Shown here one piece after another: positions 332 to 7,819 of a stretch of 12,346 nt of DNA. How positions within the stretch are numbered: the first letter of the stretch is position 1; every line of letters starts with the position of its first letter. Position numbers and translations under genes: made by a program. Source of the DNA: Candidatus Edwardsbacteria bacterium (lineage in GTDB: Bacteria > Edwardsbacteria > AC1 > JBFLXN01); the NCBI GenBank assembly GCA_040755715.1, contig JBFLXN010000014.1, forward strand, positions 1 through 12,346, in the 5' to 3' direction. The notes beneath the pieces were generated by a model. That model had not been told where the DNA came from, did no database searches, and was given only the letters and a program-made list of their open reading frames with translations.

Positions 332-597
332 TATTTTCCTAATCCTTTAGCTTTTATTAAAAGTTCTGCTGTCTGTTTACGCAGGGTAGATATGGTTCTG
401 CAATTTTTACAATCCTCGTTTTTCTCATCATATTTTTCACAAGACAAAAGCATCTCCACCTCTTTCTTTAAGTGACTCGCCCTTTCGGCTTTATCAGTTA
501 CTGCCTTTGCCTCGTTGATATCGCGGGTCAATTCTTTAATGGTCCATTCCCTTTTTAGAAATATAGGGCACTTTATCTCTGGTTTTGGTTCTGCCAT
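331..597 (-). CDS. Small Cys-containing hypothetical protein (88 aa, Cys at 10, 53, 63, 66)
   Basis: ORF-track ORF. Its ATG (597..595) overlaps the TGA stop (599..597) of the upstream gene as ATGA, which indicates translational coupling. CxxC (CKNC) plus two further Cys suggest a metal site. No family recognised. Confidence 0.45.
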   Translation of the reverse strand: MAEPKPEIKCPIFLKREWTIKELTRDINEAKAVTDKAERASHLKKEVEMLLSCEKYDEKNEDCKNCRTISTLRKQTAELLIKAKGLGK

Positions 598-1598
598 CAG
601 CGTTTAACCTCTGGGATCTGTTTTTCGCTTCCTAACTTCTGCAATCTGACCTCCAATATATTATTATGGTATCTTCTCACAATTCCTTCGCTGTCAACTT
701 TTGCTGGAAGAGAAACCTCTTCATAGTAGTTAGATTCGGGAGTTTTACAAGAGACGGTAAGTCTATCTTCATCTACCCCTAATAATATATCCTCTTCCTG
801 GGCACCTTTTAATTCCATAATGATGTTTAGATGGTCGCCTTCATCAAAGATATCCAATAACAATTCCTCTTTATCTTTTTTTAATTTATCCCCTCCGATA
901 ATCCACCAGCTAAACATAACTTTCTTTCCTGTGGATTCATCAATCTTACATCTTTGGAATACTAAAACCGGAAAACCTATCAGCTCTTGAGCCGTTGGAT
1001 TAATAATATTTCTTACCCTGTGGAGAATATCCATATGATTTGGCGCATTATAGCTGTGAGCCAATTCGTCAATGGTGGCATGTCTATTTTGCCAGACAAA
1101 AAGAAGTATATTTTGGCTCTCAGGATCTAACTCTTTGGCAATCTTATCTATTCCCTCTTGATTTATTTCCAATAGGCTTCTTTCAAATATCTTATTTTTC
1201 CACATCTCTACATCTTTTACCATAATCCAGGCCTTTGAAGCAGTTGCACCGCCTTGATTTCTATAAGAGATACAAAGGGCGTCCTTACTTCTTAATGTAA
1301 AACCCCTCTGTTGAATGCTGATTCCTTTTATATTTTCTAAGGACGTCTGGAATATAATCCTCGCCGGCTGCCAAAGAAAAAGCCTCAGGTTAGTCAGGTA
1401 CAGATGCCCTGGTTTCCAGCCGCTGCGTAGATTATCTTTGTAAAAACCCGGATCGCTTAGTATAACCTCTTCATTCGCTTTTAATTCAGGCTTATTTTTC
1501 ATCTTTTCTGTAGTGTTTATAAGTAAAACCTGGATGTCTTGCACCACCGGGTTTGTTATCTTCATATTCTTTCCGTTTATATTTTGACCTTTTATCAA
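597..1598 (-). CDS. GRAM/PH-like domain + winged-helix-like segment + C-terminal Hsp20/alpha-crystallin domain fusion protein (GvpH-like small heat-shock protein, atypical architecture)
   Basis: The N-terminal region GWKPGHLYLTNLRLFLWQPARIIFQTSLENIKGISIQ matches the GRAM/bacterial-PH-like motif repeated twice in ORF 4599..5672. The middle segment NILLFVWQNRHATIDELAHSYNAPNHMDILHRV is HTH/wH-like. The C-terminal DIFDEGDHLNIIMELKGAQEEDILLGVDEDRLTVS...RRYHNNILEVRL is a clear alpha-crystallin domain. The track start at 1598 is a TTG, preceded by AGGGG 5 nt upstream. An alternative ATG at 1565 (MKITNPVV) exists. Confidence 0.7.
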   Translation of the reverse strand: MIKGQNINGKNMKITNPVVQDIQVLLINTTEKMKNKPELKANEEVILSDPGFYKDNLRSGWKPGHLYLTNLRLFLWQPARIIFQTSLENIKGISIQQRGFTLRSKDALCISYRNQGGATASKAWIMVKDVEMWKNKIFERSLLEINQEGIDKIAKELDPESQNILLFVWQNRHATIDELAHSYNAPNHMDILHRVRNIINPTAQELIGFPVLVFQRCKIDESTGKKVMFSWWIIGGDKLKKDKEELLLDIFDEGDHLNIIMELKGAQEEDILLGVDEDRLTVSCKTPESNYYEEVSLPAKVDSEGIVRRYHNNILEVRLQKLGSEKQIPEVKR

Positions 1599-1767
1599 AT
1601 TCTACCCCTGTAGAATGTATTATCTGGGCATCTTCACCAGTTGAGTATTTAACCGAATATCTTCTTCTCTTTTTTGCCCACTCATCCCAGTCCATAGCTG
1701 TGGAGTGTCTCACCTTTGTGCCGCGGCCAGTAGAATACCCTGAAGTTTTAGGTGTCTTGGATTTCAT
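1492..1767 (-). CDS. Possible small basic repeat-containing protein (91 aa); uncertain
   Basis: ATG at 1767 has AAAGGGA 5 nt upstream. Lys/Arg-rich, with internal repeats (GYSTGRG..HST / KYSTGED..HSTG). It overlaps the 5' end of the next gene by 73-107 nt depending on which start that gene uses. It may instead be untranslated leader. Confidence 0.25.
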   Translation of the reverse strand: MKSKTPKTSGYSTGRGTKVRHSTAMDWDEWAKKRRRYSVKYSTGEDAQIIHSTGVEFDKRSKYKRKEYEDNKPGGARHPGFTYKHYRKDEK

Positions 1768-1782
1768 TTATCCCTTTTTTTC

Positions 1783-2355
1783 CTATTTCCATTTCCAATT
1801 ACAGGTCTTCCAATCATCAGGCACAGAAGGATGGTCTAAAATTCCTGTTTTCCCGCCTGCGTTATCAGTCTCCTTGACTACGTCCTCCTCGTCGACTTTG
1901 GGACTTTGCGGGGCAGGGGACGGAGCTTCCTCACATGGTTCATCTTGAGAGGAATCGAGGGCTTCAGCTGCTTCTTCCTCTTCTACGACCTCTTCGAAGA
2001 CTATCCCGCATTTCGGACAAACTGTTGTGTTTTCTTTTACGGCTGTGCCACAGCTCACACATTCATATCCTTCTATCTCTTCTACTTCTTTTTTGGTCTC
2101 TTCAGTGCCCATACTACCTCCAAGTTCTTTCTCGCCCTCGCCTTCGCCCTTAACCTGTTCTTCTCCCAAGGAAGTAATCCTGTATAAAGCAAACCTACCG
2201 GGCGAAAGCCTTTCTATATACCCTTTCTCCCACAATTTTTTGCATATATCATAGGCATAATTTATTGTAACCCTTAAGTTCCCGGCAATAGTTACGGTAT
2301 TTCCCTGTTTAATTTCCTTAAATTTTTCTAAAATCTTTTTCTCGTTAGGGGTCGT
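1783..2355 (-). CDS. Winged-helix + zinc-ribbon transcriptional regulator with acidic linker and tail; start codon anomalous (ACG at the RBS-defined start site)
   Basis: The ORF track begins at a TTG (2235) that would cut a winged helix in half. Hand translation upstream stays in frame from the stop at 2361..2359 and gives KTTPNEKKILEKFKEIKQGNTVTIAGNLRVTINYAYDICKKLWEKGYIERLSPGRFALYRITSLGEEQV, a complete wH fold. A near-perfect RBS AAGGAGGT sits 6 nt before an ACG codon (2355..2353), and there is no ATG/GTG/TTG in between. Downstream come CVSCGTAVKENTTVCPKCG (a zinc ribbon) and a poly-acidic tail. Confidence 0.5.
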   Translation of the reverse strand, partial: TTPNEKKILEKFKEIKQGNTVTIAGNLRVTINYAYDICKKLWEKGYIERLSPGRFALYRITSLGEEQVKGEGEGEKELGGSMGTEETKKEVEEIEGYECVSCGTAVKENTTVCPKCGIVFEEVVEEEEAAEALDSSQDEPCEEAPSPAPQSPKVDEEDVVKETDNAGGKTGILDHPSVPDDWKTCNWKWK

Positions 2356-2405
2356 CTTTTACCTCCTTATGTTCTTGGTTATTATTCTATCCTTATGCCA
2401 ACATT

Positions 2406-2858
2406 TCAATATTCGATAGATACAGATTTCCACTTCTTTTCGGCTCTACTCCCTTTGCCTTGGCGCCCTACTTTTTCTTGAAGAGTAGTCAATCTATTGG
2501 GTCCACGATTACGAATTACCAACCACGACCCACGAGTAGGTCCAGATAATTTAATCTCGGCTCGAGAGTGAGGTCCGAGTTTTGTCTCCTCTAACACATC
2601 ACCTTCTAAGGTAAGCCTTCCATTTTCATCTATCCTGCCTTGACTTTCCATCATAGTAACTTCGAACTGTGAAAGGCGCGGGACCATGCTTTGCAGATGA
2701 TAAACAATCAAATATGGCCACCGCATGCTTCCTTTAATCCTTACTACTTTAATTCCCACTGGGCTTGCGAGATTTAATCCCGCTTCCCTTCGAATATTCG
2801 AAGGAATAGATAATCTACCCTCTTCATCAATTTCGCTAAATCCTTTTAACAGCGGCAT
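2406..2858 (-). CDS. MraZ/AbrB-type double swapped-hairpin (DxxGR-x-xP) DNA-binding protein, putative regulator
   Basis: Two copies of the AbrB/MraZ-type motif are present: [19 protein letters not shown] and [19 protein letters not shown]. The 150-aa length matches MraZ. ATG at 2858 overlaps the dnaK 3' end (stop TAG 2838..2836) by 23 nt. RBS weak. Confidence 0.5.
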
Positions 2859-4602
2859 CTTTTGTTTCTATCTTTAGATTTCTCTTTATCCGTTTAAACG
2901 CATTATAGACAATCTCAACCAGCTTTCTTAATTCATCAATTTTTACCCTGGTCTCTTTATATTCACCCTTGGATAAAGTTGTCTTTATTGCCAGGATTAG
3001 TTTCTCTATTTTTTCTACATCTGACCTATCTATTAGACCCTCTCCTTCTTCCAGAACCATCTCTGCTGCTTGTATCATACTTTCCGCTCGAATGCCCATT
3101 TGAATCTCTTCTTTTCGCTTTTGGTCTTCCTTGGCATGAATTCGGGCATCTTCTATCATCTCGTTAATCTGGTCCTTGGTCAGCCGGGAAGAAGAACTGA
3201 TCTGGATACTTTTTTCATTATCGGTATGTAAATCCAAGGCTCTGACTTGTAAAATCCCATTGGCATCTATATGGAATGTCACCTCAATCTGAGCTTCACC
3301 CCTTCGACCGGGTGGAATATCAGTAAGCTCAAACTTACCCAGACTTATATTATCGAAGCTCAGGAATCTCTCTCCCTGCAAGACATGGATATCGACCTGA
3401 GTCTGGTTATCTTTAGCTGTCGTAAATATCTGACTGCTGGATGTAGGAATGGTGGTATTTCTTTCTATGATCTTAGCAAATATCCCTCCCTCAGTCTCAA
3501 TTCCTAAAGAAAGGGGAGTAACGTCTAACAATACCACATCTTTTATTTCCCCAATCAAGATATTGGCTTGAATTGCTGCGCCAAGAGCCACTACCTCATC
3601 CGGATTTATATCCTTATAAGGTTCTTTGCCCAGAAGCTCTCGAGCGAGCTTTTGCACAGCAGGCATTCTGGTGGAGCCTCCTACCAAAACTACCCTGTCT
3701 ATCTGGCCGGGGTTGAGCTTTGCATCAGAAAGGACCTGTTTAGTAGGCTCTATCATCTTCTCTAATAAATCCCTGGTTAGCTCTTCAAACTGCTCTCTAC
3801 TCATAGTCAGATGCAGATCCATATCTTGTATGAGAAATGGGATTCTGATATCTGCAAACCTTTTTGTGGAAAGTTCTTTTTTTGCCTTCTCTGAAGCCTC
3901 TTTCAACCGCTGTAAAGCCACCCTATTTCTTCTTACATCCACTCCATGCAACTTCTGAAAATTATCAGCCAAATAATCCATTATCCTCTGGTCCCAATCA
4001 TCTCCGCCAAGATGTGTATTTCCCCCTACTGCCTTCACCTCAAACACGCCATTGCCCAACTCTAAAATAGATACATCGAAAGTGCCTCCACCCAAATCCC
4101 ATATTAGAATATAGTGTATATCCTGCTTGTGTAAGCCGTAGGCCAGGGAAGCAGCAGTAGGTTCATTTATAATCCGCATTACCTCTAATCCGGCTAAGGC
4201 GCCTGCCTCCATAGTCGCCTGGCGCTGGTTATCATTAAAATATGCAGGAACTGTAATTACTGCTTTCTCTATTTTCTCGCCCAAATAATCTTGCGCATCT
4301 TCCTTGACCTTACGAAGGATTAAGGCCGAAATCTCTTGGGGGGTAAATTTTCTCTCGTCAATCTCTACCCCATAATCAGTGCCCATCCGACGTTTAATAG
4401 ATGCAATGGTACGTTCTGGATTTGCAACTGCCTGGGTTCTGGCAAGATTGCCTATCAGCTGCCTCCCTCCATCGGCAAAGGCAACCACTGAAGGAGTAAG
4501 CCTTCCGCCTTCAGCATTGGGTATAATCTCAGGCCTCCCATTGTTTATAAAGGCGGCTACTGAAAAGGTAGTGCCTAAATCTATTCCTATTACCTTACTC
4601 AT
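2836..4602 (-). CDS. dnaK: Hsp70 molecular chaperone DnaK (589 aa)
   Basis: The canonical N-terminus is [18 protein letters not shown]. Actin-like ATPase motifs are present: [12 protein letters not shown] and [13 protein letters not shown]. The substrate-binding domain and helical lid follow. The ATG at 4602..4600 is preferred over the track's upstream extension ([10 protein letters not shown]...). That extension overlaps the preceding gene and precedes the conserved Hsp70 start. ATGA overlap with the stop of ORF 4599..5672. Confidence 0.95.
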
Positions 4603-5672
4603 TTGGCTACCTGGGCTATTTTCTTCTTTAACCGTGGGCTGACCCAGCCGCAGTTTACGCAACCCTTTTCTAATAGCTCTAAGGCGTTTGCCTTTTTTCC
4701 GCATTGAGGGCAGGCTTCTGTTCTTTCTCTAAATGATATGATTCGGGTAAGCGCCCTCTCCCACTCATACATTCCCTCTCCTGAAAAAGAGGCAACCTTT
4801 CTTTGAGAACCACCTTCACCCAGCCCTTGCGCGCAAGAGCTGGGTTCATATATTACGTCAAAGACCTTTTTCTTCTTTAATACCGGGCTCAAATTCCTTA
4901 CATCTATAGCAGAACCTAATATCTTTTCTGAAGGGACTTCAAAAGCCAATCTCTTTTCAAAATCATACCACCAGCATAATCTCTTATTTGTTATATACAG
5001 ATGACCGGGCTTCCAGATACCATCTGATGAGGCCATATGCCAGGCCTTGCCCTTGTGAGTAATCGTTTCTCCTTCTGTCAGGAAATCTAATGTCTCTTCC
5101 TCATATTCGGGTAGAATAAGGTTTTCATCAATTATAAGTCCGCCTAACTTTATCGCCTCTTTTATAGACTCACCTAATTTATCTATCTCCACAGACCGCA
5201 GACGCGCTAATCTATCATCCTTAAGAATAAGTAAGAGCGTATCTTCTTGTATCAAGAGCCCCTTTATCTCATCTAAAGAGGTTTGAAACATCACTTCATT
5301 AAGCTCTTGATTCATGAGCAGCAGTCTTTTATCAGTTAAATAAATCTGCCCCGGTCTCCAACTAACATAGATTCCTTTGGCATAAAAAAAAGAGCCCAAC
5401 ATCTTAAGTTTAAGCTCTTCTCCCTGGATTAAAGAAATCTCTTTTTTAGCTCTATTATCTTTTTCCCAGGCGCGAATCTTCTCATCCCATGCCTTCATCA
5501 TGCCATACTCGAGCATAGTCTCCATGCCGGCCAGGGCGGCTCTTAAATTAACACCGATTAAAGGGATGCCCGCCACAGAGATGATAATGTCAGCGTTGAT
5601 CACCAACCCCTTATCCAGGACCCTATCCAATAAATCAACCAATGTGACCCGTGCATCTCTGGTTGGCTCCAT
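4599..5672 (-). CDS. GvpA/J-family gas vesicle shell domain fused to two GRAM/PH-like domains and a C-terminal zinc ribbon (357 aa)
   Basis: N-terminal [48 protein letters not shown] is a textbook GvpA core (compare canonical [44 protein letters not shown]). Two GRAM-like units follow ([19 protein letters not shown]... and [17 protein letters not shown]...). The C-terminus [25 protein letters not shown] is a zinc ribbon nearly identical to the C-terminus of ORF 7469..7819. ATG at 5672 has AAAGGAG upstream. Confidence 0.8.
4819..4844. repeat. Second copy of the 26-bp palindrome (CCCAGCCCTTGCGCGCAAGAGCTGGG, 25/26 identical), in frame inside the GvpA-GRAM-ZnR gene
   Basis: On the minus strand it encodes PSSCAQGLG, between the second GRAM domain and the zinc ribbon. 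It is flanked by ttca.../...ttcata, as the other copy is. Confidence 0.75.
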
Positions 5673-7468: not shown

Positions 7469-7819
7469 TCATTCTGCCTTTATATCTTTTGCCTTGGCGC
7501 TTACCCAGCCACACCAGGGACAGCCCTCATCAAGTAATTCTTCTGCCAGAACTTTTTTGCCGCACTGTGGACAAAGTTCTTTACCCTTCATGGCTTCTTT
7601 CCAGGCTTCTGTTTCCACATTAGTCCCTGATGGAAACTCAAGGCCATACTTTGCTGCTGTCTCAAAAGAAGCCAGGGCTGCCCTTATCTTAATTCCCAAA
7701 AGCTCTACTCCGGCAACAGATATGGCGATATCCGCATTAATCACCAGGCCTTTGTCTAAAACCCGGTCTATGACATCAACCAAAGTAACACTTGCATCTT
7801 TTGTCGCTTCTATTGCCAT
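7469..7819 (-). CDS. gvpA: GvpA/J-family gas vesicle structural protein with C-terminal zinc-ribbon extension (116 aa)
   Basis: [49 protein letters not shown] is the GvpA/GvpJ core. The C-terminus is CPQCGKKVLAEELLDEGCPWCGWVS (CxxC...CxxC). Strong RBS AAGGAGG (7834..7828) sits 8 nt before the ATG at 7819. Whether this is the major GvpA or a J/M-type minor paralog cannot be decided from sequence alone. Confidence 0.85.
   Translation of the reverse strand: MAIEATKDASVTLVDVIDRVLDKGLVINADIAISVAGVELLGIKIRAALASFETAAKYGLEFPSGTNVETEAWKEAMKGKELCPQCGKKVLAEELLDEGCPWCGWVSAKAKDIKAE

Follow-up and report, generated by a model that had tools for sequence, protein, structure and literature searches.

A winged-helix/zinc-ribbon gene of a gas-vesicle-type cluster reads ACG where its orthologues start with ATG, probably through a recent loss of the start codon

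The stretch of DNA analysed here (the window) comprises 12,346 nucleotides of contig JBFLXN010000014.1 (NCBI assembly GCA_040755715.1), part of a metagenome-assembled genome (MAG) labelled 'Candidatus Edwardsbacteria'. It carries a gas-vesicle-type cluster with all genes on the minus strand. Encoded upstream of the gene under study, which specifies a predicted winged-helix and zinc-ribbon protein (denoted wH-Zn), are GvpO, a double ArsA/Get3-type ATPase, GvpG, a DnaJ-type zinc-finger protein, GvpA, Hsp20, GvpK, GvpF/L, a GvpA-PH/GRAM fusion, Hsp70 and an AbrB/MraZ-like protein. Pfam matches above the cut-offs were obtained for Gas_vesicle (two genes), GvpL_GvpF (220 bits), GvpG and GvpO, and GvpK was assigned from the Pfam annotation of an identical contig of the Logan collection (L003); the window showed no GvpN-type AAA+ protein. 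In every related cluster the Hsp70 gene is followed by that of a 149-aa homologue of the AbrB/MraZ-like protein, and the wH-Zn family is itself a fixed member of this large gas-vesicle-type cluster. As a putative DNA-binding protein encoded within a gvp-type cluster (GvpA, F/L, G, K, O), wH-Zn resembles the gas-vesicle regulators GvpD/GvpE of haloarchaea and GvrA/B/C of Serratia, but we found no sequence relationship to them, and the wH-Zn family is a different protein. The features of the locus are collected in Table 1.

Table 1. Coordinates of the wH-Zn gene, its start region and its neighbours in the window.
Feature	Position	Strand	Remarks
AbrB/MraZ-like gene, 150 aa	2406-2858	-	Pfam MraZ 22.4 bits; TGA 50 nt 5' of ACG, in another frame
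Shine-Dalgarno (SD) sequence AAGGAGGT	2368-2361	-	5 nt 5' of ACG; last base is the T of TAA
In-frame TAA	2361-2359	-	closes the frame upstream of ACG
AAG	2358-2356	-	between TAA and ACG
ACG at the ancestral ATG position	2355-2353	-	derived base C at 2354 (plus strand G)
wH-Zn gene frame, 190 sense codons and TAG	1783-2355	-	TAG at 1785-1783
N-terminal winged-helix domain, residues 1 to ~72	2140-2355	-	predicted, AlphaFold2
TTG, codon 41, first canonical start	2233-2235	-	NCBI start; without SD; within helix 3
Zinc ribbon, residues 96-120	1996-2070	-	C99-x2-C102 ... C113-x2-C116, conserved in the alignment
C-terminal motif HPSVPDDWKTCNWKWK	1786-1833	-	conserved; after a low-complexity acidic linker
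Spacer GAAAAAAAGGGATAA, 15 nt, wH-Zn TAG to ATG of the 91-aa gene	1768-1782	-	lineage-specific deletion junction
Conserved 91-aa gene	1492-1767	-	tblastn 68-82% identity to L011, L006, L016, L008, L012

The first-pass annotation of this locus described a textbook ribosome-binding site followed by ACG, with a TAA inside the site. A direct read of the window agrees with this description exactly, coordinates included: the minus strand from 2370 to 2330 is ATAAGGAGGTAAAAGACGACCCCTAACGAGAAAAAGATT. The base that had been singled out, at 2354, is the middle base of the ACG, with the clarification that the minus strand has C there and the plus strand G. The ACG is followed by the codons ACC CCT AAC GAG AAA AAG, and translation from 2361 to 1783 gives a stop, then KTTPNEKKILEKF...NWKWK and the terminal stop, with zero internal stops. 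The window contains five copies of AGGAGGT, all of them on the minus (coding) strand, against 2.1 copies expected over both strands. Three of the four other copies stand 5-7 nt 5' of the starts of the GvpO gene (aaaggaggtataaaag-ATG), the DnaJ-type zinc-finger gene (gaggaggtgaaag-ATG) and a 68-aa zinc-ribbon gene, and the remaining one sits inside the Hsp20 gene. The three copies at gene starts indicate that the organism uses strong SD sequences, and the copy before the ACG has the standard geometry; it is unlikely to be a chance match.

No ATG, GTG or TTG is present in any frame within 20 nt of this SD. An upstream extension or read-through was rejected, as the TAA closes the frame and the AbrB-like gene ends in another frame, and ATT at codon 8 (2334-2332) is an unlikely start, lying 26 nt from the SD, having no SD of its own and cutting helix 1. 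The 50-nt intergenic region was examined for a leader or RNA element: the window as a whole gave no Rfam match that reached its gathering score, and positions 2310-2410 fold no more stably than shuffled sequence (z = -0.11). A promoter-like match, TTGAAA-17-AATAAT, is found at 2409-2381; promoter-like matches in 1400-3000 are not commoner than in shuffles (4 vs 3.3).

For the N-terminal domain encoded from the ACG, AlphaFold2 predicts the topology H-beta-H-H-beta-beta-H, with elements H3-15, E17-19, H20-27, H31-44, E47-49, E57-60 and H62-75 in the model and a pLDDT of 88-96 per 10-residue block over residues 1-70. The best Foldseek match of the predicted model in the PDB is MarR (5h3r_B, E 2.9e-4, probability 1.00, rmsd 2.2 over 73 columns), and further matches include AspA, RosR and many MarR-family wHTH chains; no Pfam wHTH model reaches its cut-off (TrmB 16.4 bits, cut-off 25.6; MarR 13.1 bits, cut-off 24.6). 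The modelled domain superposes on MarR/TrmB-type wHTH folds such as E. coli MarR (5h3r) and pNOB8 AspA (4rs8) with an rmsd of 2.2-3.4 over 70-78 columns, but wH-Zn lacks the N- and C-terminal dimerisation helices of MarR and, unlike these proteins, is fused to an acidic linker, a zinc ribbon and a Trp-rich C-terminal motif. The linker has a pLDDT below 50 and is predicted to be disordered. The zinc ribbon of the window protein matches Zn_Ribbon_1, Zn_ribbon_3 and DZR (E 6e-5 to 4e-4) just below the gathering scores, with 23.2 and 22.2 bits for PF13240 and PF13248 against cut-offs of 25 and 27, and the orthologues P0015 and P0013 pass the Zn_ribbon_3 gathering score (27.3 vs 27). Across homologues the C-terminal motif reads HPSVP(E/D)DWKTCNWKWK and is intact in the window; the C-terminal peptide of the orthologue P0031 is HPSVPEDWKTCNWKWK, and the columns P179, W182, C185, W187, W189 and K190 are near-invariant in the alignment.

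These predictions describe an uncharacterised, conserved family with a MarR-like winged helix, a disordered acidic linker, a zinc ribbon and a Trp-rich C-terminal motif, and it is the fold of the putative DNA-binding protein that suggests a regulatory role. They bear out the earlier proposal of a winged helix joined to a zinc ribbon, as well as the remark that beginning translation at TTG 2235 would truncate the winged helix, since codon 41 falls inside helix 3 (residues 31-44).

A protein search returned 30 proteins, 29 of which were taken into the alignment. All 29 aligned homologues start M-T-[S/P/Q]-N-E-K-K at column 1, where the window has T(ACG)-T-P-N-E-K-K. At the DNA level the aligned codon is ATG in 14/14 distinct orthologous sequences (26 contigs), obtained mostly from exact-protein look-ups, with genome and metagenome scans contributing 1 and 5 loci. 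The orthologue ATGs are preceded by a purine-rich SD at similar spacing, usually in the context AAAG-ATG-AC. The closest relative, represented by contigs L001 and L002, reads GAGGAGTGAAA-ATG-ACT-CCT-AAT-GAG; its protein P0031 (190 aa, from a Nitrospirota MAG) shares 88% amino-acid identity with the window frame and is collinear with it. Among the orthologue DNA compared, ACG occurs only in the window and in L003. P0030 (113 aa, beginning MLRVTINY) was considered as a second start-less orthologue and rejected: its contig L027, at a coverage of 2.26x, keeps the ATG and carries a 1-nt deletion in a T-run that shifts the frame. The ATG in all 14 orthologues and the alignment at Met1 indicate that the ACG is a derived T-to-C transition and not a conserved non-AUG start. 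Among the readings offered in the first pass, the comparison upholds an ATG-to-ACG point mutation; genuine non-canonical initiation or a regulatory device is not supported, since none of the 14 orthologues shares the ACG, which had been named as the sign of such initiation.

A second derived change lies directly downstream. In the relatives that carry the homologue of the 91-aa gene (L006, L008, L011, L012 and L016) or its annotated equivalent (L024), the gap between it and wH-Zn is 2.4-7.2 kb. In L001 and L004, where the homologue of the 333-aa PH+Hsp20 gene serves as the far landmark, the gap is ~5.6-6.6 kb, and L021 has the same genes after wH-Zn, its contig ending before either landmark. 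In the relatives the interval encodes at least one small TPR protein, a number of small ORFs, a second ArsA (ArsA2, 734-814 aa) and a B12-binding radical-SAM enzyme (426-487 aa), and in most cases also a TPR protein of ~310 aa; in L011 it contains just two of these, the large TPR protein and the radical-SAM enzyme. The genes beyond the block are 88-99% identical to L001. Since the window has a 15-nt junction where every relative with enough flank has a kilobase-scale interval, the block is missing in the window lineage, and two derived changes thus stand side by side: the downstream block is gone, and so is the start codon of the gene heading it. The TPR, ArsA2 and radical-SAM genes could lie elsewhere in the genome, beyond the 12.3-kb window. 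The deleted block had gone unremarked in the first pass; it lies outside the coordinates treated there.

To learn about selection on the frame, we compared it with L001, which gave a dN/dS of 0.24 overall and of 0.12 in the first 66 codons. When substitutions were polarised with nine outgroups, the window branch showed 11 non-synonymous changes plus the start-codon change and 12 synonymous changes (omega ~0.24), and the L001 branch 7 non-synonymous and 8 synonymous changes (omega ~0.24). In the 40 codons 5' of TTG 2235, the window branch carries 6 synonymous vs 2 non-synonymous changes. Constraint in these N-terminal codons indicates that, during most if not all of the period after the two branches split, the N-terminal part was being translated. 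Either the ACG arose recently or it still serves the gene as a start, and the counts are too small to tell which.

The possibility of a pseudogene had also been raised. One of its marks is present, the loss of an expression feature (ATG to ACG, with no alternative canonical start that has an SD), whereas the frame is undisrupted, with 190 codons open and collinear with P0031, and constraint is not relaxed on the window branch, where omega equals that of the sister branch, a comparison of low power in which a very recent inactivation looks identical. The lost start codon therefore stands, but with an intact frame under constraint it is too early to speak of a pseudogene. The gene may function at a low level, and no decay was seen beyond the start codon.

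We consider it probable that the start codon was lost recently in this one lineage, leaving either a severe hypomorph with a trickle of expression or an incipient pseudogene. In this lineage only, an ancestral ATG would have become ACG by a T-to-C transition. The intact SD would still place the 30S subunit with ACG in the P-site, and full-length protein would arise by near-cognate initiation only, at ~1% or less of the ATG level if E. coli is a guide. E. coli reporters place ACG in a class initiating at 0.1-1% of AUG, and by mass spectrometry the products of ACG starts carry N-terminal Met with a minor Thr species (Hecht et al., bioRxiv 10.1101/063800). By analogy with this class, a drop of at least two orders of magnitude would be the default expectation, and the leader shows neither an Rfam match nor a significant RNA structure by which it might be altered. 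The change resembles start-codon-loss alleles of the ATG-to-ACG type in being a single second-base transition with an intact SD and a predicted residual initiation of 0.1-1% of AUG, and differs from the reporters of Hecht et al. in being a natural allele of an uncultivated bacterium, not an engineered one. If the wH-Zn protein works with or controls the downstream block, loss of the block would have removed selection on the start codon; the gene order suggests that the need for the protein may have been relaxed because its partners or targets were lost. The event is of an ordinary kind, a start-codon-loss allele in a MAG, and no new initiation mechanism is revealed.

An unlikely reading is that non-AUG initiation was selected here, ACG and a perfect SD keeping the regulator scarce or IF3-sensitive in the manner of the infC AUU. 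Regulatory non-AUG starts include the AUU of E. coli infC and pcnB, and the infC AUU is conserved among orthologues. Like these, wH-Zn has a noncanonical codon at a well-placed SD, from which low, IF3-sensitive initiation would be expected; as in infC, the SD distance is correct (the SD and its 5-nt spacing are optimal) and the codon opens a conserved frame from codon 1. The frame is intact, the constraint on the window branch (omega ~0.24) extends to the N-terminal 40 codons, and ACG initiates measurably in E. coli. However, none of the 14 distinct orthologues has ACG or any other non-ATG codon, so that no conservation suggests a device, in contrast to infC, and the intact frame is equally explained by a recent mutation. 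Moreover, the mismatch of ACG falls on the middle base, and E. coli initiates from it less well than from codons of the AUU/AUA/AUC/CUG class. We know of no natural bacterial ACG start, and a literature search for such starts found nothing relevant. A version of this reading in which the ACG is a working start and the winged-helix/zinc-ribbon protein has been kept at very low copy since the loss of the partner block seems to us distinctly improbable; if true, it would be, to our knowledge, the first natural bacterial ACG start kept by selection.

Most likely the dominant genotype truly carries the ACG in its DNA, and acquired it recently. L003 (SRR29635779), assembled by a different pipeline, is identical to the window over all 11,630 nt, ACG included, and the agreement of a second assembly argues against an assembler artefact. 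The protein cluster at 90% identity has three members, namely two truncated calls of the window genotype and P0031, and no ATG-started version of the window genotype was found in a collection of 15 billion proteins. The window and L003 assemblies probably share one read set and so are not independent sampling, which leaves room for a consensus error or a minority/majority polymorphism. That the true base is T and the gene starts normally with ATG is nevertheless rather improbable. The source is a metagenome-assembled genome, in which single-base errors such as the T-run frameshift of L027 occur, but a T-to-C change outside a homopolymer is atypical for a consensus error, and both the agreement of the two pipelines and the missing ATG version speak against it. 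The sequencing error suggested in the first pass is thus weakened by L003, and it keeps some ground through the probably shared reads.

The NCBI entry for the gene, P0001 (MEW6684984.1, 150 aa), starts at TTG 2235, which also opens the single ORF (150 aa) of the wH-Zn frame in a mechanical ORF list; the Logan gene call P0032 (128 aa) starts at TTG 2169. An exact look-up of contigs encoding P0001 returned no gene with precisely that product on record, and L003 was found via P0032. Because TTG 2235 lies within helix 3, the annotated product is without the winged-helix domain. It is very unlikely that either truncated protein is the real product. The two TTGs are the first canonical starts and were picked by two gene callers, but neither has an SD (the sequence 5' of TTG 2235 is atatatgcaaaaaa), unlike many genes in the window; the cut within helix 3, the purifying selection on codons 2-40 described above and the start of all orthologues 40 codons further upstream likewise argue against them. 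Restoration at the RNA level by C-to-U editing of ACG to AUG, as known from chloroplasts and plant mitochondria, is scarcely credible, since we know of no such mRNA editing system in bacteria, the window gives no hint of one, and one site in one lineage does not look like the work of an editing system.

As annotated, the 150-aa and 128-aa products begin without a ribosome-binding site and the DNA-binding-type domain is absent from them; a better description of the gene is a frame of 190 codons whose start is mutated. The cluster in this lineage probably runs with little or no winged-helix protein and without the TPR/ArsA2/radical-SAM block. As such it would be a natural 'minimal' variant that helps to tell which parts of a large uncharacterised cluster are dispensable.

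The window is part of a large syntenic supercluster found repeatedly in metagenome-assembled genomes labelled Nitrospirota, Edwardsbacteria and Patescibacteria (window; L012, L016, L021 and L024, the L numbers denoting contigs of relatives that carry wH-Zn orthologues). Its order is GvpO, a double ArsA/Get3 ATPase, GvpG, a DnaJ-type CxxCxGxG zinc-finger protein, GvpA, Hsp20 and GvpK, followed by GvpF/L, a GvpA-PH fusion, Hsp70, an AbrB/MraZ-like protein, wH-Zn, TPR, ArsA2 (the second ArsA of the relatives' clusters) and radical SAM. Part of the published work links ArsA homologues with gas-vesicle genes (PMC2963123). No GvpN-type AAA+ gene was seen within the window.

Comparison with the relatives shows that the window lacks a block which, in all of them, separates the wH-Zn gene from the 91-aa and 333-aa genes. 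The block comprises genes for one or more small TPR proteins, for ArsA2 (734-814 aa), for a B12-binding radical-SAM enzyme and for a ~310-aa TPR protein, together with small ORFs. The short A-rich spacer found in its place is similar to two stretches of L011, one after the wH-Zn stop codon and the other before the ATG of the 91-aa gene, and this resemblance to both flanks suggests that the block was lost by deletion through microhomology. Beyond the junction, the conserved 91-aa ORF (1492-1767, minus strand) shares 74-107 nt with the beginning of the 333-aa ORF (597-1598, minus strand), depending on whether the true start of the latter is ATG 1565 or TTG 1598. The product of the 333-aa gene is 322 aa long in the call from Logan, another assembly set, and 301-311 aa in relatives.

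The region 597-1767 shows mosaic similarity to L001 and L004. The wH-Zn protein shares 89% identity with that of L001 and just 50% with that of L004; for the 333-aa, 88-aa and following genes the identities are 88-99% to L001 and 89-94% to L004. Together with the differing phylum labels of these genomes, Edwardsbacteria versus Nitrospirota, the mosaic identities suggest that cluster segments recombined or were transferred, or else that there are binning and labelling problems.

Coordinates of the junction, block equivalents and individual genes
Feature	Sequence	Position	Strand	Remark
Deletion junction	window	1768-1782		15-nt spacer
Block equivalent	L001	2340-8970
Block equivalent	L012	10526-17719
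Block equivalent	L016	10559-16063
Block equivalent	L011	6030-8466
wH-Zn neighbour gene	L001	2348-2575
wH-Zn neighbour gene	L010	796-1065
wH-Zn neighbour gene	L012	10535-11017
GvpA-domain protein, 357 aa	window	4599-5672	-	C-terminal zinc-ribbon-like motif
GvpA-domain protein	window	7469-7819	-	C-terminal zinc-ribbon-like motif
98-aa ORF	window	11725-12021		GIY-YIG-like (provisional label)
Stand-alone winged helix	L006	979-1173
Stand-alone winged helix	L007	6001-6168
Stand-alone winged helix	L012	8503-8721
Stand-alone winged helix	L016	9740-9961

The motif shared by the two GvpA-domain proteins reads CPQCGKK...C(P/V)xCGW, and the 357-aa protein carries, between its GvpA domain and zinc ribbon, two GRAM/PH-like segments as well. 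The PH/GRAM-like N-terminus of the 333-aa protein, which also contains an Hsp20 domain, is similar to these segments.

At the cluster head, a 42-nt direct repeat of 88% identity (11724-11765 and 12017-12058) flanks the 98-aa ORF on both sides, and just upstream lies a perfect 20-nt repeat with copies 156 nt apart (12001-12020 and 12157-12176). The repeats look like tandem copies of a small, provisionally GIY-YIG-like gene heading the gvp cluster.

Several related clusters contain, upstream of the full-length wH-Zn gene, stand-alone paralogues (72-73 aa, 31-34% identity) of its N-terminal winged helix; no ORF annotated in the window is a counterpart of these. The L027 orthologue (170-200), on a contig of 2.26x coverage, keeps its ATG and has a 1-nt deletion within a T-run (GATTTAAC in place of GATTTTAAC). 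The deletion, probably a low-coverage error, creates an early TAA, so that the gene caller restarted at Met26.

Proteins of the wH-Zn family close with a nearly invariant Trp-rich peptide, HPSVPEDWKTCNWKWK (window 1786-1833, minus strand), preceded by a disordered acidic linker. In most relatives a small TPR protein is encoded next to the wH-Zn gene, or one gene further downstream. TPR domains frequently take C-terminal peptides as ligands, and hence the wH-Zn protein and the small TPR protein may be partners.
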